Below, in pieces: positions 25,157 to 35,411 of a stretch of 35,411 nt of DNA; within the stretch, counting starts at the first letter, position 1; the number at the start of each line of letters is the position of its first letter. The notes under the pieces are model-generated. The model saw nothing but the letters and a program-made list of their open reading frames with translations. It did not search any database and was not told the DNA's origin. This stretch comes from a virus (taxonomy: Duplodnaviria > Heunggongvirae > Uroviricota > Caudoviricetes): positions 1 to 35,411 of the IMG/VR virus record IMGVR_UViG_2654587746_000006; one strand, 5' to 3'. The position numbers and the translations under genes were made by a program.

Positions 25157-26914
25157 TTATACTTTGCACCTCTTTGAATAATCTGCAATAATTTCCTCAA
25201 TACCATCAAAAATAACTTTAAACTTTTCAAAACTAATTGTTTTACAATTTGCCTTTATAACCTTTGTTGAAAACACATGCTTACCATATTCTGTTTTTGT
25301 ATCCGTATCATTAGATTTATTAAATGTCTTTCCATCAAGCACCGTTGATAGTACCGTGCTATCAAATAAATCCTCCATACAAGACTCTTTCCCTCCAGGA
25401 AGCAATGGTGTTAATAACAAATAGAGATTGTCAAATATGTGGGTATACCTTGCCTTACGAATAGTATCAACATCATTTGGACAATTTTTTACTTTATCCT
25501 TTAAGTGATTTAATAAATCTTTAGGGCCTGAGTCATTATCAAGAAGCATAATAACAGGGTGCTTTGGTTTAAATTTCTCGAACCTCTTTTTTTGTTCTTG
25601 GTATCTTAATATAAATCTTTTGAAGTCTGTAGCACCGCCAGAAATGTCAAGAAAATAGCTTGTTTTTTCAGTTGCTTTAAAAAAATTAACACGATACTCA
25701 TTTTTAGAGCTATCATCAGAAGAATTAAACAATAAAGGATATGAATTCGCCAATGACTTCAAAGCACACTTTAAATATACACGGTCTGTTTTACCCTCAG
25801 TGAGTATTGTTGGCATTTCCATTCCATGAAAATTTTTATAGTATAGAAAATAACTGTAGGCTTTTTCTCTCGAATTCAATTTTGCAGTGTAGTTTAATCC
25901 ATGATTTACACTTTGGTACTTTTCCAACTGTCTTGCGTTCTTTAGTTTTAAATTATTATATTTATCTATTGAGTCAATAAATCCAAAACGGCCTTCTAAT
26001 TTAGCACATGTACCTTTTTCAATCTTTCCTGATTCAGTAACAATAACAAAAGAACCATCTTTATAAAGAGAATGAGCCATGGCACGCGTTACTTTTGCAT
26101 ATTCTTTGCCAACATTCACTTTTTTATTAACAGTCAACCCAGTAACATCTTGTCGTGATGTTTTATAACAAACCCTTGTCTTTTTATCATTTATTTTAAA
26201 GCCAGCCTTTATAATCTCTTTAATTAAAGTTGGACTTAGGGTTACAGACTCTCCGCCAACATCAGCAATCTCTTTTGGAAATGTTTTTTTATTAGTTGAA
26301 AATGTAAGATCATCAGCATACCGTGAATAATTGCATCCGTATTTCTTTGCTAACTTTGATAATCTTATATCAAGAATTCCACTGATTAAGTTACTTATAA
26401 TTGGAGAGCATGGGCTTCCTTGAGGAAGTCCATTCTGAAAACATGCAATTTGTGCGATCGTTGTAGCAACAGTATTATTTAATCTAAAATCTCTGTTTGA
26501 TAAGAAAAAACCTCTAACACGTCCAAAATTAAAACTATCAAAATAATCCTCAAGGTCTATATTTAGTAGTAGCGTTTTACCTCTATGCCGTTCAGCATTC
26601 GTAATAATTGACTTTTCTTTTTCAAACCCATGAGATAAAACTGGATTAATATTATATTTTTTATAAATTTCCGCACGACATAAATATAAAACATCAGCTA
26701 ATCTACGTTGAATATCTTTGAGCTTAGTGGTAGGTGCTGATATGACTCTCGGCGCTCCGTTTTTTTTAGGGATAGTAAATTGTGTATACTGCGTTTCAGC
26801 TTTTAAACGATAAATAACATCCGTAAGAAAAGCAGTTTTAAGATTCAAGATACTAGCCAAATCTTGCCTGTTAGCAGCGTTTTGTAAACGTTCTAAAATT
26901 GATAGGGGTGCCAT
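25157..26914 (-). CDS. ret: Retron-type reverse transcriptase with C-terminal TOPRIM-like domain
   Basis: 585 aa; RT motifs NAERH (NAxxH), LLNIDLEDYFDS, QGSPCSP, YADD, VTG; C-terminal ~220 aa with TOPRIM-like Glu (ILTEGKTD) and DxD (LLDNDSG); AT-rich; preceded by msr/msd-like region. Confidence 0.9.
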   Translation of the reverse strand: MAPLSILERLQNAANRQDLASILNLKTAFLTDVIYRLKAETQYTQFTIPKKNGAPRVISAPTTKLKDIQRRLADVLYLCRAEIYKKYNINPVLSHGFEKEKSIITNAERHRGKTLLLNIDLEDYFDSFNFGRVRGFFLSNRDFRLNNTVATTIAQIACFQNGLPQGSPCSPIISNLISGILDIRLSKLAKKYGCNYSRYADDLTFSTNKKTFPKEIADVGGESVTLSPTLIKEIIKAGFKINDKKTRVCYKTSRQDVTGLTVNKKVNVGKEYAKVTRAMAHSLYKDGSFVIVTESGKIEKGTCAKLEGRFGFIDSIDKYNNLKLKNARQLEKYQSVNHGLNYTAKLNSREKAYSYFLYYKNFHGMEMPTILTEGKTDRVYLKCALKSLANSYPLLFNSSDDSSKNEYRVNFFKATEKTSYFLDISGGATDFKRFILRYQEQKKRFEKFKPKHPVIMLLDNDSGPKDLLNHLKDKVKNCPNDVDTIRKARYTHIFDNLYLLLTPLLPGGKESCMEDLFDSTVLSTVLDGKTFNKSNDTDTKTEYGKHVFSTKVIKANCKTISFEKFKVIFDGIEEIIADYSKRCKV

Positions 26915-26949
26915 ATCTAAAAATCAACCTTGATTATCAGTTAGGGTAG

Positions 26950-26962
26950 GCACATGTAGGCA
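26950..26962. repeat. Retron inverted repeat a2 (gcacatgtaggca on + strand)
   Basis: Perfect reverse complement of 27068-27080. Confidence 0.7.
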
Positions 26963-27067
26963 CTCTTACGCAAAGCATAGGACAGCCCAAGAATGGCTAC
27001 AAGGATGTCAGAAGGCGAATCCATCTAACATTTAGATCACTGATTGCGATACCACAACCAACAAATC

Positions 27068-27080
27068 TGCCTACATGTGC
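27068..27080. repeat. Retron inverted repeat a1 (tgcctacatgtgc on + strand)
   Basis: Perfect reverse complement of 26950-26962. Confidence 0.7.
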
Positions 27081-27159
27081 ATGCTTAAGCTACCATGATC
27101 ATTTAAGAATGTGAAGAACCGTTAACAGTTTTGAAAGAGCCAGATCATAGCATTGCGCG

Positions 27160-27190
27160 CGCTCGTATCCCCGCCACGCCTGCCCGCTTT
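27160..27190 (-). other. Candidate cos (cohesive-end) site of the P2/186-like phage
   Basis: Minus strand reads GGCGTGGCGGGGA..., resembling my recollection of P2/186 cohesive ends (GGCGAGGCGGGGAAAGCAC type); oriented toward the portal gene. Confidence 0.45.
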
Positions 27191-27225
27191 ATGTAGTGGT
27201 TTTCATGCACCTGCATGATCTACAC

Positions 27226-27250
27226 AAAAGCCCGCCAGTTCTGGCAGGCC
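27226..27250 (-). terminator. Candidate terminator of the SOS-controlled operon
   Basis: Imperfect GC-rich hairpin gcccgccag..ctggcaggc followed on the minus strand by tttt. Confidence 0.4.
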
Positions 27251-27383
27251 TTAGCAAAAACGATCCTCAAACGATCATGCGATCTCATGCGGCATAGACA
27301 TGCACCACAGAGCTAACGCCTCGCACAGCTCGTTGTTCAACCTTGCTGACGCCAGAAGCAAGTTCAGACGCCAGCAACGTTTC

Positions 27384-27617
27384 TTAATGCAGCCAGCTGT
27401 CGTCTTCCCACACCTTCTGCATAATTTTCATCACTTGCTTCCTTTCTTCGTCCAGTTGCAGTCCGGTCAGTTCCACACCGTTAGAGCTACCTTTGCGGAT
27501 ACGAATTACCGTTTTGGGATACAGGGGGCGCAGATTACGGTAAAGCTCGGATTCAAGGGCGTCTAGGGTAGACTGGCTAATCTTCTGCTCTTTATCGATC
27601 ATTATTTCAATGCGCAT
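27384..27617 (-). CDS. dinI: DinI-like protein (DNA-damage-inducible protein I family)
   Basis: ~78 aa from Met MRIEIMIDKEQ... with GAGGTG RBS; resembles E. coli DinI (MRIEV... WE..D.W); ORF track extends 24 codons upstream. Confidence 0.8.
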   Translation of the reverse strand: MRIEIMIDKEQKISQSTLDALESELYRNLRPLYPKTVIRIRKGSSNGVELTGLQLDEERKQVMKIMQKVWEDDSWLH

Positions 27618-27627
27618 AAAAGTCACC

Positions 27628-27816
27628 TCAACTGATGACATCCATTGAGCGGTTGTATTCGTGGGTTCTGATTTTTGCCATGAGTTCATCTGTTAGTTCA
27701 GAAACCCACTGTAAAGCCAGCCCCTTCTCTTCATCACTACACTCACTAGCCGCTACAAGCTTAAGAAAAAAATCAATGCGCTGGAGCTTCAAAGACTCCA
27801 AAAAATAGTCCTGCAT
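27628..27816 (-). CDS. Small hypothetical protein, first gene of LexA-box operon (possible Tum-like antirepressor module)
   Basis: 62 aa from Met MQDYFLESLK... with AGGAGG RBS 4 nt upstream; directly downstream of SOS box; overlaps dinI-like start by ~11 nt. Confidence 0.5.
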   Translation of the reverse strand: MQDYFLESLKLQRIDFFLKLVAASECSDEEKGLALQWVSELTDELMAKIRTHEYNRSMDVIS

Positions 27817-27857
27817 CTTTCCTCCTATGACACCACAAGAAATACTGTATACATAAC

Positions 27858-27877
27858 CACTGTTTATAATTACAGTA
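27858..27877 (-). promoter_or_regulatory. LexA (SOS) box overlapping a sigma70-like promoter
   Basis: CTGT-ttataatt-ACAG (27860-27875) fits CTGT-N8-ACAG; minus strand shows TTTACA - 17 nt - TACTGT -35/-10 candidates overlapping the box. Confidence 0.6.
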
Positions 27878-27969
27878 TATAATAATCTTACTGATGTAAA
27901 ACGTTTTTTTACGTTCATCAGCCTGATATGCCTGGTATTATTAAGAGCACGGATTGTTAACCCGCGTGA

Positions 27970-30384
27970 TTAATACAGGTTCCGCCACTTATCATCTTCC
28001 TGCAAACGCTGGTTCCGATAGAAGATACGCAGGCCTGCTCCTGACGGAATACTGCCACCGCGAAGGAGCAAATCGACCTCTTTCTCGCTGCCATCAAATC
28101 CTCTGGACTTCAGTTCATAGACGAGTTGCTGACGCTGATACTCTGTAATTCGCTGTTTGTAGTCTTTACGCCGTTTCGGTTTAACCAGGCGTAATCTTGC
28201 TGCCAGTTCCCGGCGCTCTTTTTTGCTCATACTGTGCAGGTAATCGTGCAACTCCTTGTCATCCATGCGGGTGATATCCGTTCTGGTATCCCCATCAGCT
28301 GATTTGTCTTTCCCTTGTTGGTTCAAATTTTCAGCAAGGGGACAGTTATTGCCACGAGTCCAAGGGGCGCAAGCGCCCTGGTCGGCTGCCGCCTCCTGAA
28401 CGTCAACGGCCTTACGAACCATTTTCCACTTCACTGCATGAGTGCAGATCTTGCCCTCTGCAATGGGTGACCAGATGCCATAAATACGAATACCGTGATC
28501 ACCATAGGCGGTCGGCTCTTCGTTGATTTCATAAGCGGTTCTGATCAAGTGATATTTGCGGGGAACCAACACGCCGCCCTGCTTCATAATGTAGGTGGCA
28601 AAACAGCCAGCATCAGCAGCAGCCAGAATGGCATCAAGACGCGGATCATCCAGTACCGGCGCACCTGCTTTTTTGTCACCCTGCTGCCTTGCCGCCTGAC
28701 CAGCCAGCAATCGCAGTTCACGGTAAGCCTGACGCCCCGGAATGCCAAAGAAGCGGAATTGCTGAACACGATGCAGAGACGCCCAGGCATTAACGTATTC
28801 AGCGTTATCACGCAGGGATTTACCCGTTTCCTTGCTGATCTCGCCAGCCAGACCACGCCCGTCAATGTTCTTACTGATGTATTTCGCGATGTAGCTTGTC
28901 GGCGTTCCTTTGCGCGGGTTAATCAGCTCAGACTTAAAGCGTGGCCCCGTGTTATTGCCCAGTTCCTCGCGGTCTTCACGGATGGCAAACTTACGCAGTA
29001 ATGCAGTGATGGCGCGGCGGTCTTTTTTACGTATGAAGCACATGAGATGCCAGTGCACAGTACCGTCATGATGCGGCTCAGCCACCCGCACGCCATACCA
29101 CCGCAATCCGGCTTTGTGCATCGCCTTACGAAATGCAGCAAACATGCCGACCAGATAATCACTGCTTTGTCTTACCGTCGCATTTGTCCAGGTCGGGTTT
29201 GGTCTGCCGTTATTGAGCGTGGAATGGAAACGTGACGGACAGGTGATGGTGTAGAAAACGGCGCAGTCACCGCGCATTTCCGCGATAAGCTCCAGACCTT
29301 TAACGCAGGCCATCATCTCATTGCGGCGATGTGCCGGGTTGCTGCTGCTGGCGTTTACCACATCTTCCATATCCAGCGTGTCTCCGTCTTCGTTCACCAG
29401 TTCATGAGAACGGAAAAACTCCAGCGACTTGCGGCGCTGCTCACGTTTATGCGTCACTGCTTCATAGCTGACATAGGGAGATGCTTTTTTGCTGACCAGA
29501 CAGACAGCACGCAACTGCTCTTCCCGCCATTCGCAACGCATCTTCCACAATTTTCGATACCACCAGTCGGCGCAAAGCATACGTGCCAGCGAACCCGGTA
29601 TGAGTTCATAGGGCACAGGTTTGCGGCGGTTTCTTTTCCGACGAAGTTTCTCAAACGCAGGCGGGATAACATCCAGACGCAGGGTTTCCGCAGCCACCTT
29701 TTCCCATGTCTTGCGGATTTCTTCTGGCTTAACGTCATCGGTGGCGTACAAATCACCACAAGCGGCCTCAAGACACATGCTCATATGCGCTGCTACCAGG
29801 GTGGACAGGCGTTTCACCTGATCCTGGCTCATTTCAGGCAGGATCAGCAGCCCCTCCAGCCCTTGATGGCTTGCCATAAAACGGAAAGAAACAGATAGCT
29901 GACTGTCACGTACACAATCCAGTCGCTCCAGACATGGCTTAATCGTCTCACGCAAATAGCGGGAATAAGCCTTTGGCCTGCCCAGGCTGCTGAAGTATTC
30001 GATACGTTGCATCAGCGGCTTGCTGATATGAGAAGGCTGGGCGCTGACATCTGCCAGAATGACCATGTCCGGGTTAAAACGCTGCTGCTCATGCGCCAGC
30101 TTTGCCCGGCTAATGAGCTTATCCTGCTCCATTTCGCGCTGGACAGGATCACGGGATTCATTAAAGAAATAACGCTCCCAGACCTGCTCACTCAGTGCCT
30201 CGCGGCGCAGTTGTTCCTGCTCGTTATCGGCAGCGTACAGAGTGATCAGGTTTGAAAGTGCAGACTCCGGCGCAACTTCCGCCGGATCCAGATAAGGGTT
30301 AATGGCCTTTTTCGGGCCGTTCCATGAAAATGCTGCGGCAGCCTCGTTAAAGCCGCTAGAGTTGCTCATATCGTCATGACTCAT
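27970..30384 (-). CDS. Replication initiation protein, P2 gpA-like rolling-circle nickase
   Basis: 804-aa ORF with HUH-type and tyrosine motifs (TVHWHLMCF; [10 protein letters not shown]); last gene of the early operon. Confidence 0.88.
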
Positions 30385-31238
30385 ACACGCACCTCGTACA
30401 CAGCAGAACTATCCACGCCACGCGAAGGATCAAATCCCATCCAGCAGCGCGACCCGGAAACAGCAATGATTTCTGTTGCAGATTTACTCTCGCCAGCTGA
30501 CACGCCGATGCTGCGTTTTGCCTTGATGTAGTGGTGAGTGAAATTGCGATACAGCGAACGGATCAGGGATGTGTCACTGTTAGAAACAATGACCGGATGA
30601 CCTTCTGATGATCGATATTCAAGAACGGATGCCAGGTGATACTGGTCATCTTCAGTGAAGCCGTCAGTGTGATAACCGGAAAACGTGCCGTCATACGGCG
30701 GATCGCAATACACCACATCCCCCGCCTTCAACATCGCCAGCGTTTCATCAAAGCTGGCGCAGATAAACGTTGCTCGCTGGGCCTTTTCTGCAAATGCGTG
30801 AATTTCTTTTTCAGGGAAATACGGATTTTTATAATTACCGTAGGGAATGTTGAAATGCCCGCTCTTGTTATAGCGACATAAACCACGGTAACCGTGACGA
30901 TTGAGATACAGGAAATATACCGCTTTCATGAAATCAGTAATTTCAGTTGAGTAATTAAACTCCTGCCTTATGTTGTAATAAGCTAGGTCACTGTTTGCTT
31001 CCTCAAACAAAGTTCTGGTCCGCGATATAAACGCCTCGCAATCAGCGGCAATCTTTTTATAGAGGTTGATTAAATCAGGATTAATATCCGCAACCAGATA
31101 GCTGGGGTAATCCGTCTCCATCATCACAGCACAGGAACCCGCGAAAGGTTCAACCAGTCGCGGGCCAGCAGGTAGGTATTTTTTCAGTTCGGACATAATT
31201 GCGGTTTTATTTCCCGCCCATTTCAGGATGGTGCTCAT
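30381..31238 (-). CDS. dam: DNA adenine methyltransferase (Dam-like, orphan)
   Basis: ~285 aa from Met [11 protein letters not shown]...; motif [11 protein letters not shown] and motif IV DPPY; stop overlaps A start; no adjacent restriction endonuclease gene. Confidence 0.88.
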
Positions 31239-31462
31239 ACAGCACCTCCGTTGTAATGTTTGCCTTTCAGCTCTGCGATTTCCTGACAGGTAATGCAAAG
31301 CTGCACTCCAGGAATGGCACGGCGGCGTGCTGGCGGAATTGGTGCTTCACATTCAATGCAAAGCACGCGAGACACGCCCGGTGTTTTGGCACGGGCAGCA
31401 CGGATATGGCGCTGGCGTTCTTCTTCAACGCGCTGCTGTACGAGATCCATTGCATCAGCCAT
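31235..31462 (-). CDS. DksA/TraR-family C4 zinc-finger protein
   Basis: 75 aa with CIECEAPIPPARRRAIPGVQLCITCQ; start overlaps upstream stop (TAATG). Confidence 0.8.
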   Translation of the reverse strand: MADAMDLVQQRVEEERQRHIRAARAKTPGVSRVLCIECEAPIPPARRRAIPGVQLCITCQEIAELKGKHYNGGAV

Positions 31463-33289: not shown

Positions 33290-33414
33290 GATGCAACATT
33301 CCTCGTTTAATGATGATTAATCAGGACGAATACGGATCGTTTGTATTTTGTGAACACCATAAACATACGATCGCGCAGTGAAATCGTCAAGATAAAAGTT
33401 CACTTGGAGTGACC

Positions 33415-33984
33415 ATGAATTTGGAGAAAGGCGGACGAGGCGCTATAGAGCGCATGGTAGAAGCTTATGGATTCAAGACTCGACAGGCGTTGTGCGATCA
33501 TTTAGGAATCTCTAAAAGTACACTCGCCACACGCTACATGCGTGACTCATTCCCAGCAGAATGGGTAATCCAGTGCGCCCTTGAAACAGGCACCTCGCTT
33601 AATTGGCTCACAACCGGGCATGGTTCAAAGCAAACTTCAGGTAATACAAATACTATGGAAGTTGCTAAATATGTATTATCTGATGGGGCCTTGTGTGAAG
33701 ACGGTTTTTATATTTTCGATAGAGAATTTCTACCGTCGGCATTCAAGAATCTTTTTGTAATCACAGATAATAATTCTGAATTTATTTGTGATAAGGAATT
33801 TGATGATATACGTGATGGTAAATGGGTAATAAGTATTGATGGCGAAATAACGATCCGTGACATTACTCGTTTACCCGGTGGAAGAATCTTCGTCGAGGGT
33901 GGAAACAGAGCCTTCGAATGCAAGATAGAAGACATTGAAATAATTGGTAAAATTATAAGTTTAACAGTCAAGTATGTTAAATAG
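33415..33984 (+). CDS. cI: Immunity repressor CI (186 type, no S24 peptidase domain)
   Basis: ~189 aa from ATG (MNLEKGGRGAIERMVEAYGF...ALETG..LNWLTTGHG); no Ser-Lys autoprotease motif seen; divergent from apl-like gene. Confidence 0.85.
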   Translation: MNLEKGGRGAIERMVEAYGFKTRQALCDHLGISKSTLATRYMRDSFPAEWVIQCALETGTSLNWLTTGHGSKQTSGNTNTMEVAKYVLSDGALCEDGFYIFDREFLPSAFKNLFVITDNNSEFICDKEFDDIRDGKWVISIDGEITIRDITRLPGGRIFVEGGNRAFECKIEDIEIIGKIISLTVKYVK

Positions 33985-33999
33985 TACCGGGAGGAAATT

Positions 34000-34191
34000 A
34001 TGCTTGGTAAGGTATTTTTTGTGGTTTTGTCATGTTCTTTGTTATTAAACCCACTAGCTACCTATGCTAGAAATTATCCCTGCTCAGGGAAAAAGGGAGG
34101 TGTTTCTCACTGTACCTCTGATGGCAAATTCGTTTGCAATGATGGAACTATTAGTAAATCCAAAAAAATCTGTACTAAAAACTCACGATAA
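34000..34191 (+). CDS. Small secreted Cys-rich protein (cargo between cI and int)
   Basis: 63 aa with GGGAGG RBS; signal peptide [23 protein letters not shown] then ~40-aa mature part with 4 Cys; AT-rich. Confidence 0.55.
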
Positions 34192-34379
34192 CTTTTGCTT
34201 TTATATCTGCGCCTAAAATAAAAATGAGCCACAGGTTAACCGCAAAAGTTACATGCTCACATAGCAAAAAGAATAGCCTACTTCATTATGGCTTCAGTGA
34301 GATGTATGGTCGCAGGATTTCATACATTGACACTGGTTATACATACAGTAAAAATGCTCTCTATTGGAGGGCATTTTTT

Positions 34380-35411
34380 ATGGCTGTACGAAAACTCACC
34401 ACAGGAAAATGGCTTTGCGAATGTTACCCCGCCGGACGTAGTGGGCGTCGTGTGCGTAAACAATTCGCCACCAAAGGCGAAGCACTGGCTTTTGAGCGTC
34501 ACACGATGGAAGAAACCGAAGCAAAGCCCTGGCTGGGTGAATCAGTGGATCGTCGAACACTGAAAGACGTGGTTGAGCTATGGTTCAAACTACATGGTAA
34601 ATCACTGACTGCTGGGCAGCATGTCTATGACAAATTGCTGCTGATGGTTGACGCTCTGGGCAATCCCCTTGCAACTGATCTCACATCTAAAATGTTTGCC
34701 CACTATCGAGATAAACGCCTGACAGGTGAGATCTACTTCAGCGAGAAATGGAAGAAAGGAGCAAGCCCGGTCACCATTAACCTGGAGCAAAGCTATCTAA
34801 GTAGTGTTTTTAGCGAACTATCCCGCCTGGGCGAATGGTCGTATCCGAACCCACTGGAGAACATGCGAAAATTCACCATCGCAGAAAAAGAGATGGCATG
34901 GCTTACCCATGAGCAGATTGTTGAATTGCTGGCTGATTGCAAACGTCAGGACCCAATTCTGGCACTGGTAGTTAAGATATGCTTAAGCACAGGCGCACGT
35001 TGGCGTGAAGCCGTAAATCTTACCCGCTCACAGGTGACCAAATACCGAATTACCTTTGTAAGAACGAAGGGGAAGAAAAACAGAAGCATCCCTATCAGTA
35101 AAGAGCTTTACGAAGAGATCATGGCGCTTGATGGGTTCAATTTCTTTACAGACTGCTATTTTCAATTTTTATCCGTGATGGAAAAAACGTCTATCGTGCT
35201 CCCTCGCGGTCAACTGACACACGTTCTGCGCCATACGTTTGCGGCGCACTTCATGATGTCGGGTGGAAATATCCTGGCCTTACAAAAAATTCTCGGGCAT
35301 CACGATATAAAAATGACTATGCGTTACGCACATCTGGCACCGGATCACCTGGAAACTGCATTACGGTTTAATCCGCTGGCAACACTACCAACATCAATAG
35401 CAAGTTTTTGA
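34380..35411 (+). CDS. int: Tyrosine integrase (P2/186 family)
   Basis: ~343 aa from Met MAVRKLTTGKWLCECYP... with GGAGG RBS; catalytic signatures TGARWREA, HVLRHTFAAH, MRYAHLAPDH; stop codon is the last 3 bases of the window. Confidence 0.9.
   Translation: MAVRKLTTGKWLCECYPAGRSGRRVRKQFATKGEALAFERHTMEETEAKPWLGESVDRRTLKDVVELWFKLHGKSLTAGQHVYDKLLLMVDALGNPLATDLTSKMFAHYRDKRLTGEIYFSEKWKKGASPVTINLEQSYLSSVFSELSRLGEWSYPNPLENMRKFTIAEKEMAWLTHEQIVELLADCKRQDPILALVVKICLSTGARWREAVNLTRSQVTKYRITFVRTKGKKNRSIPISKELYEEIMALDGFNFFTDCYFQFLSVMEKTSIVLPRGQLTHVLRHTFAAHFMMSGGNILALQKILGHHDIKMTMRYAHLAPDHLETALRFNPLATLPTSIASF

Follow-up and report, generated by a model that had tools for sequence, protein, structure and literature searches.

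A predicted LexA-repressed tumA–tumB operon in a Fels-2-type, 186-like prophage

The 35,411-nucleotide stretch of DNA analysed here (the window) very probably contains the SOS operon of a Fels-2-type, 186-like (Peduoviridae) prophage, in which a LexA-repressed promoter would drive two small genes, tumA and tumB. The order on the minus strand is the replication gene A, a −35/−10 pair, a LexA box, a 62-aa ORF (ORF1, tumA) and a 77-aa DinI-family ORF (ORF2, tumB). The module is not new. It is the already described LexA-controlled tumA–tumB operon of Fels-2/PSP3-type P2-like prophages, and the finding adds nothing beyond the published work on 186, PSP3, Fels-2 and E. coli HS. Its main value lies in annotation, in that a 62-aa gene that RefSeq and most phage records call a ‘hypothetical protein’ (one label is ‘levan regulatory protein’) can be recognized as the probable induction switch of a widespread E. 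coli prophage type, and recognizing tumA predicts which P2-like prophages are SOS-inducible.

The features of the region are collected in Table 1. Both ORFs described in an earlier note on this DNA, a 62-aa ORF with an AGGAGG ribosome-binding site and a DinI-like ORF with a GAGGTG site, are present on the minus strand, and the end of gene A lies ~70 nt from the −35 hexamer of the tum promoter. The same note had the two ORFs overlapping by ~11 nt. This overlap is absent: the tumA stop codon and the ATG of tumB that is supported by a ribosome-binding site are separated by a 10-nt gap, the two reading frames differ by +1, and only a mechanical upstream extension of tumB reaches into tumA. The tumB frame is open for 24 codons 5′ of its ATG and the extension starts at an ATG at 27689, a stretch that was set aside as evidence of a fusion, being short enough to occur by chance. 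Since the tumA stop codon lies inside the tumB Shine-Dalgarno sequence, tumB is probably translationally coupled to tumA. A programmed frameshift giving a 186-like fusion was considered and dropped, as it would need a +1 shift and no convincing slippery site was found by eye. A generic scan made three terminator-like calls, two of them downstream in the retron region and the third a hairpin at the tumA/tumB junction (27639..27622), which is unlikely to be a terminator because tumA and tumB are conserved together as a pair with an invariant spacer. An Rfam search of positions 26500–28100 gave no match. The stem-loop right after tumB (z-score of a 101-nt stretch, only −1.6) lies at the border between the conserved module and a variable cargo slot.

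Table 1. Features of the predicted tum operon and of the immunity repressor gene in the window.
Feature	Position	Strand	Evidence
Replication gene A, P2/186-type	30384..27970	minus	Pfam Phage_GPA 1.8e-127
−35 hexamer TTTACA, tum promoter	27900..27895	minus	direct reading; invariant in 60 distinct upstream sequences of the class
−10 hexamer TACTGT, also left arm of LexA box 1	27877..27872	minus	same hexamer as the −10 of 186 p95
LexA box 1, TACTGTAATTATAAACAGTG, predicted	27877..27858	minus	0/200 shuffles as good; arms conserved among relatives
LexA box 2, CAGTGGTTATGTATACAGTA, predicted, weaker, 5-nt overlap with box 1	27862..27843	minus	LexA-site score; similarity to colicin operators
tumA Shine-Dalgarno AGGAGG, ATG 4 nt later	27826..27821	minus	invariant in the class
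tumA, 62 aa, antirepressor homologue (stop codon included)	27816..27628	minus	phrog_698 3.6e-38; Fels-2 STM2728 / E. coli HS ‘tum’ type
tumB Shine-Dalgarno GAGGTG, overlapping the tumA TGA (27630..27628)	27629..27624	minus	direct reading
tumB, 77-aa DinI-family protein (stop codon included)	27617..27384	minus	Pfam DinI 6.6e-23
Conserved stem-loop right after tumB, no U-run	27343..27377	minus	fold: stem ~11 bp
cI, 186-type immunity repressor, predicted TumA target	33409..33984	plus	Phage_CI_repr and Phage_CI_C matches

The tum promoter reads TTTACA-17-TACTGT and its −10 hexamer overlaps LexA box 1, in agreement with the promoter-like element on the minus strand that had been noticed earlier. 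Promoter p95 of phage 186 is annotated as TTCACA-18-TACTGT with a LexA box beginning at the −10 hexamer. The window promoter has the same architecture, and its −35 is placed relative to the LexA box as is the annotated −35 of p95. The tum promoter was not called by a generic promoter scan because its −10 matches TATAAT at only three of six positions.

The pattern CTGT-N8-ACAG at 27860–27875 is the sole exact match in the window. A match to so loose a pattern is not significant alone, with 0.58 expected per window and at least one found in 44 of 100 shuffles. All 20-mers were scored with a symmetrized heterology-index matrix built from 23 E. coli LexA sites, which gives approximate index values. 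The 20-mer TACTGTAATTATAAACAGTG has a heterology index of ~5.8, which is inside the range of the training sites (2.3–11.8), and a site of this quality did not occur in any of 200 dinucleotide-shuffled versions of the 35-kb window, so that the near-consensus SOS box of the earlier note is upheld. Comparative conservation is stronger evidence than the shuffle test. In a set of 242 related IMG/VR loci with complete upstream sequence, representing three diverged TumA classes, CTGT-N8-ACAG precedes the small gene in 239, the arms do not vary and most substitutions fall in the spacer. Box 1 of the window has one spacer substitution relative to the commonest variant of its class. A palindrome, a good full-length score, an overlap with the promoter and conserved arms around a variable spacer are all found here, as predicted for a LexA operator.

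A second LexA box, CAGTGGTTATGTATACAGTA, overlaps the first and was missed in the earlier reading. Only two LexA-like 20-mers of the window score better than box 2, and class members share the arms of box 2 while differing at its centre. Over the 46–47 nt that take in both boxes, identity to the DNA preceding the colicin N and colicin R genes is 83–85%, and boxes 1 and 2 are predicted to make up a double SOS operator of the colicin type. In colicin genes two LexA dimers bind such an operator cooperatively, which results in tight repression (PMC2994835).

BLASTP gave no alignment of ORF1 with either 186 Tum or PSP3 TumA, so the homology of ORF1 to Tum is shown by profiles, which come from low-diversity alignments. 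ORF1 matches phrog_698 (3.6e-38), phrog_8554 (2.4e-8) and phrog_1993 (2e-3), while the N-terminal 70 residues of 186 Tum match the same three families in the order phrog_1993 (2e-23), phrog_8554 (3e-12) and phrog_698 (6.7e-6). Residues 7–44 of the Tum N-terminal half fall on positions 7–44 of the phrog_698 profile and are hence in the same register, and PSP3 TumA is itself a member of phrog_1993. Pairwise links lead from the window TumA to an ESSI2-type protein (51% identity, 1.5e-18), from the latter to the N-terminal half of 186 Tum (29% over 35 residues, 2.4e-6) and from there to PSP3 TumA (38% over 29 residues, 4.9e-6), a transitive chain that holds in one register. Profile–profile comparison by hhalign of the window class plus ESSI sequences with the 186 class gave a P value of 1.1e-5; with the very shallow class alignments the probabilities were weak until the ESSI2-type sequences were added. 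By these profile comparisons, ORF1 and the N-terminal half of 186 Tum are remote homologues. The shared core consists of a Cys followed seven residues on by [LI]-A-L, and an AlphaFold2 model of TumA is a helical hairpin (helices 2–23 and 28–61, pLDDT 90) with the core Cys in the turn. ORF1 belongs to no family in Pfam or PADLOC and no sequence-related PDB chain was found. The closest named relative is STM2728 of Fels-2, to which the window TumA is 98.4% identical. The earlier suggestion that the 62-aa product is antirepressor-like is therefore supported by a family, phrog_698, shared with the Tum N-terminal half, and the alignment to Tum that had been called for succeeds by profile for ORF1. 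Homology to the Tum N-terminal half, a location in a LexA-box unit directly after gene A and a 186-type CI in the same prophage together identify the window gene as a predicted member of the Tum/TumA group.

For ORF2 the relationship is direct. The tumB product matches Pfam DinI (PF06183) with 81.3 bits (6.6e-23) against a cut-off of 24.2 over profile positions 1–63 of 63, its residues 1–75 align full length with E. coli DinI (1GHH), and it is 41% identical to residues 71–145 of 186 Tum (E 3e-24) and 78% identical to PSP3 TumB. TumB is, by these alignments, a full-length DinI-family protein, in line with the DinI-like ORF of the earlier note. Its most likely role is to bind RecA filaments and so to adjust how strong the SOS signal is or how long it lasts.

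The window CI gives hits to Phage_CI_repr (2.8e-33) and Phage_CI_C (2.7e-27). Its identity to 186 CI is 33%, and the solved structure of that repressor, 2FJR, is matched at 2.6e-31. Against Peptidase_S24 it scores 16.3 bits, below the 23.3-bit cut-off and at profile positions 56–116 only (the C-terminal half), and its sequence contains no GDSM-type serine motif, which agrees with the earlier observation that this repressor lacks S24 autoprotease motifs. From its sequence, CI would thus be of the 186 type and not of the lambda-type, self-cleaving (S24) kind, and with S24 below threshold and no serine motif in CI, induction is expected to proceed via an antirepressor.

When the CI N-domains are grouped by single linkage (≥60% identity), the clusters coincide with the three TumA classes for 207 of 209 loci. 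In the class of the window, cII and gene A are 89–100% and 89–98% identical to the window copies, respectively. Pairwise identity among loci of this class is 52–100% (median 72%) for the CI N-domain and 23–100% (median 35%, at least 7 clusters) for the CI C-domain, and Apl has no detectable homologue in 23 of 67 loci. The shuffling of the CI C-domain and of Apl, which flank the CI N-domain, with the N-domain staying one family, is consistent with TumA recognizing the DNA-binding domain. The N-terminal DNA-binding domain of CI may accordingly be viewed as a candidate TumA target, on a correlation that is confounded by shared ancestry. Near-invariant TumA in the company of diverse CIs means either that TumA acts on many CI variants or that in certain prophages the two are mismatched and induction fails.

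The three classes differ in how the two parts of Tum are arranged. The window-class (Fels-2) scan returned only loci with 100% identical TumB, and within that set the genes are split in 82 of 82 loci, with the same two-gene layout and a tumB that has its own ribosome-binding site. A spacer of exactly 10 nt was present in every one of the 81 loci examined, and no TumA of the class carried more than 2 substitutions over its 62 residues. The other two classes came from separate scans that used PSP3 TumA or the N-terminal half of 186 Tum as query. Fifty-one PSP3-class loci are split and the remaining 30 of 81 have TumA alone and no DinI gene, each with at least 500 nt of downstream sequence; ESSI-2-type phages likewise keep the LexA box and TumA and have no DinI gene. 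The existence of these TumA-only loci indicates that TumA is the indispensable part. In the 186 class the gene is fused in 79 of 81 loci, is broken in one and lacks a detectable DinI domain in one. Since all window-class loci share one layout, the split represents a stable two-gene operon and not a recent frameshift, so that of the two origins raised by the earlier note, a natural split or a frameshift of one ancestral gene, the former is retained and the latter is not. Phage 186 keeps a Shine-Dalgarno sequence and a GTG start at the DinI boundary, which fits the possibility that 186 Tum is a fusion of two once-separate genes, the alternative being a fission here. The module is found in 1125 of 5426 complete E. 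coli genomes (about a fifth), where the small gene is a ‘hypothetical protein’, and phages of Klebsiella, Salmonella and Yersinia have this layout too. Antirepressor–repressor recognition could be mapped on this natural variation, in which Tum occurs split, fused or as TumA alone and the CI alleles are mosaic.

We propose that in the uninduced lysogen LexA would occupy the overlapping double operator identified in the sequence, covering the −10 hexamer and the start region so that the operon would be silent. Upon DNA damage, activated RecA would lead to self-cleavage of LexA and the operon would be transcribed, as indicated by the genetics of the E. coli HS homologue. TumA would then bind the non-cleavable 186-type CI and stop it from binding its operators, a role suggested by homology to 186 Tum and PSP3 TumA and by the HS deletion phenotype, and with CI off its operators the early lytic promoter would fire. 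TumB, judging by its family membership, would act on RecA filaments as a modulator and not as the switch.

In the P2-like prophage of E. coli HS, ‘tum’ was deleted in frame by fusing its start and stop codons (PMC11195241, the Phollow preprint), and this deletion and lexA(Ind−) each abolished induction by mitomycin C (PMC11195241). The HS tum junction primers, GTGGTGTCATAGGAGGAAAGATG and TGAGGTGACTTTTATGCGCATTG, each have a single exact match in the window, at 27836..27814 and 27630..27608, and the matches fall precisely on the start and stop of the 62-aa ORF. Furthermore, the Fels-2 record links STM2728 to EcHS_A0919 of E. coli HS. Dependence of induction on tumA and LexA is genetically demonstrated for the HS homologue and by near-identity would apply to the window. 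The induction and deletion experiment suggested in the earlier note has effectively been published for this near-identical module. The antirepressor route that it had envisaged, as in the 186 tum operon, is supported by gene position, promoter layout and the HS deletion result.

Three other readings of the region have to be weighed. In one, the two ORFs are the remains of a recently frameshifted 186-like fused tum, hence a decaying pseudogene, and the prophage is no longer SOS-inducible. The +1 difference between the frames is what such an event would leave, 62 and 77 aa plus a linker come close to the 146 aa of 186 Tum, the tumB frame is open upstream of its ATG, and one 186-class locus (L238) does have a broken fused gene. 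However, an open stretch of 24 codons arises at random about one time in three, and a fresh lesion would not be expected in 82 of 82 class loci with an invariant 10-nt spacer and a tumB that has its own Shine-Dalgarno sequence and ATG. Purifying selection is obvious, with TumB identical in 80 loci (in a scan that returned only such loci) and TumA having no more than 2 changes, the layout recurs across 1125 complete E. coli genomes as well as phages of Klebsiella, Salmonella and Yersinia, and the HS prophage with the same layout is inducible and needs the small ORF. We consider a decaying pseudogene extremely unlikely.

A slightly more credible proposal, though still a quite improbable one, is that TumB, or TumA and TumB jointly, is the true inducer, for example by way of RecA, and that the 62-aa ORF is an accessory or leader peptide. 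Both parts are one polypeptide in 186, the 186 record annotates shorter DinI-like products that ‘modulate SOS induction’, and the HS deletion might have lowered the coupled translation of tumB. That deletion left the TGAGGTG Shine-Dalgarno sequence and the tumB ATG in place, however, and 30 of 81 PSP3-class loci as well as the ESSI-2-type phages keep the LexA box and TumA without a DinI gene. The PSP3 gene annotated for UV induction is tumA, and non-polar dinI deletions in the Gifsy prophages are without effect on induction (PMC3121763). It could also be argued that the SOS-box match is fortuitous and non-functional and that the genes are controlled by CI or by read-through from the replication genes and not by LexA, given that the loose pattern is expected 0.58 times per window, that the −10 is weak and that gene A ends only ~70 nt upstream. 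Against this, the full 20-mer beats 200 of 200 shuffles, its arms are invariant and its spacer variable across three diverged classes, a second box is adjacent and the whole operator resembles those of colicin genes. In addition, induction of the HS homologue is blocked by lexA(Ind−) and p95 of 186 is annotated as SOS-dependent. A chance match without function is thus exceedingly hard to credit, and a LexA-repressed operon with TumA as antirepressor is the reading that we favour.

The best LexA-like site in the window lies elsewhere. It is CACTGGTTATACATACAGTA at 34331–34350, in the spacer of a TTGACA-17-AAAAAT promoter-like element located 52 nt upstream of the int start codon. A box at the same distance, with conserved arms and a variable spacer, is present in 36–40 of 64 class relatives and absent from all 136 loci that belong to the 186 or the PSP3 class. 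Fels-2 has no int-proximal box because its int directly follows cI. It is conceivable, though we hold it to be doubtful, that in a subset of Fels-2-type prophages LexA acts at two points, with the double operator on tumAB giving very tight, late induction and a single operator lying in the promoter of int itself, and that TumA recognizes the CI N-domain so that one TumA serves many immunity variants. The literature searched contains no description of a tumAB double operator, of a LexA operator at int or of recognition of the CI N-domain by TumA.

What follows tumB is hypervariable: 78 loci have 38 types of cargo in this slot, and homology among class members stops 0–80 nt past the tumB stop codon. 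In the window the slot is occupied by a type I-C RT-Toprim retron of the Ec67 type.

Among known systems Fels-2 is closest to the window. It has the same gene order of A, the 62-aa ORF (STM2728) and the DinI-like gene (STM2726.1), and differs in its CI allele and in its downstream cargo, which is a 243-aa hypothetical protein instead of the retron. The tum gene of both Fels-2 and PSP3 is described as split in two by a stop codon (PMC3121763; the primary source for Fels-2 is Bunny et al. 2002, as cited there). PSP3 shares with the window the two-gene split, the LexA box and the position after gene A. Its record describes tumA as ‘similar to 5′ end 186 tum; UV induction of prophage’ and tumB as ‘similar to dinI and 3′ end of 186 tum’, and the upstream gene is stated to carry antirepressor activity on the strength of a personal communication cited in PMC3121763. 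However, PSP3 TumA belongs to another sequence class (phrog_1993 versus phrog_698), its CI N-domain is of a different family, its intergenic gap is 3 nt versus 10 nt in the window, and its only LexA box lies ~40 nt from the start codon.

Phage 186 also resembles the window in having a LexA-repressed promoter after gene A in which TACTGT is both the −10 hexamer and an arm of the box, a non-cleavable CI of the 186 type, and a Tum protein with an N-terminal half homologous to TumA and a DinI-like C-terminal half. 186 Tum has been said to look like an antirepressor fused to DinI (Lemire et al., PMC3121763), and is reported to bind CI and prevent its binding to operators (Shearwin 1998, as cited in PMC3121763). 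In contrast to the window, 186 encodes one fused 146-aa polypeptide with internal starts, including the GTG at the DinI boundary, and its operon continues with orf97 where the window has retron cargo. The dinI-gfoA/gftA operons of the Gifsy prophages are LexA-controlled and combine a small antirepressor, directed at a non-cleavable repressor, with a DinI homologue that is dispensable for induction, non-polar dinI deletions having had no effect (PMC3121763). The Gifsy phages are lambdoid, and the order of the two genes is reversed, with dinI first.

Both 186 and PSP3 have a single LexA box, which aligns with box 2 of the window. The colicin N and colicin R operators, like that of the window, consist of two overlapping boxes in which box 2 has a degenerate GTG in place of CTG, whereas the sequence 5′ of the boxes and the spacing to the −35 hexamer differ. 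The gene placed downstream of this double operator also differs, being a toxin in the colicins and a predicted antirepressor in the window.

The strongest LexA-like sequence in the window does not lie in front of the tum operon, the LexA-controlled pair of genes for the antirepressor homologue TumA and the DinI-family protein TumB, but ahead of the integrase gene (Table). The 17-nt spacer of the int promoter-like sequence TTGACA...AAAAAT contains this 20-mer, CACTGGTTATACATACAGTA, at a distance of 52 nt from the int start codon. In 36–40 of 64 relatives belonging to the TumA class of the window, a box is present at this distance from int, its arms conserved and its spacer variable; the 136 loci examined from the 186 and PSP3 classes have no such box. 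The promoter-like sequence may be an int promoter under SOS control, of which no description was found in the literature searched. Unlike the window, Fels-2 has no box at int, because its int gene directly follows cI. Fels-2 also lacks a gene at the position of the 63-aa ORF of the window, the predicted product of which has a signal-peptide-like N-terminus and several cysteines.

The immunity region (33409-33984, + strand, in the window, and the CI repressor genes of the related IMG/VR loci L004-L083) is a mosaic island within a conserved backbone. Among loci with near-identical TumA, cII and the replication gene A are 89–100% identical to the window copies, pairwise identity of the CI C-domains falls to as low as 23% and that of the DNA-binding N-domain is never below 52%, and the CI proteins vary in length between roughly 190 and 300 aa. 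No homologue of the window's Apl was detectable in 23 of 67 loci.

The composition of the tum operon itself varies. The LexA box and TumA are kept and the DinI-like gene is absent in 30 of 81 PSP3-class loci, and the same arrangement is found in Cronobacter phage ESSI-2 and Escherichia phage ESSI2_ev015. The loci behind this observation are L130-L138 and others of the PSP3 class, together with L246 and L247; in L134, the DinI-like gene is reduced to a truncated remnant. Downstream of tumB is a hypervariable slot, with 38 unrelated cargo types (1.5 kb each) in 78 loci that have identical TumB. Homology among the loci ends 0–80 nt past the tumB stop codon, in the vicinity of a conserved stem-loop. 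In the window, the slot adjoining tumB is occupied by a retron, a cargo unique among the 78 loci compared. This RT-Toprim type I-C retron, which we take to be of the Ec67/Eco2 type, contains a perfect inverted repeat that probably flanks msr-msd on both sides, and an Rfam search of 26500-28100 gave no match. As originally described, the Ec67 element codes for a reverse transcriptase (RT) plus a Dam methylase.

Table. Positions of the features discussed, in window coordinates
Feature	Position	Strand	Details
Retron region	25157-27080	-	RT and inverted repeat
Retron RT, 585 aa	25157..26914	-	PADLOC RT-Toprim type I-C, 2.7e-223
Perfect 13-nt inverted repeat	26950-26962 and 27068-27080		in retron region
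Downstream flank of tumB (cargo slot)	27300-27383	-	sequence 3' of tumB; compared with L004-L083
Conserved stem-loop	27343-27377	-	no U-run; homology stops at or just beyond it
tum operator	27843-27877	-	double overlapping SOS box; feature of the window's TumA class
Dam-type methylase	30381..31298		
63-aa ORF	34000-34191	+	between cI and int
int promoter-like region	34328-34383	+	TTGACA...AAAAAT, 17-nt spacer
LexA-like 20-mer	34331-34350	+	top LexA-like score of entire window
int start codon	34380	+	RBS GGAGGG

The tum operator of the window class has a double box, whereas 186 and PSP3 have only a single one. The upstream regions of colicin N and colicin R are 83–85% identical to this operator over 46–47 nt. 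Since the likeness includes non-contact bases, the sequences suggest either a common origin or strong convergence of the tum and colicin operators.
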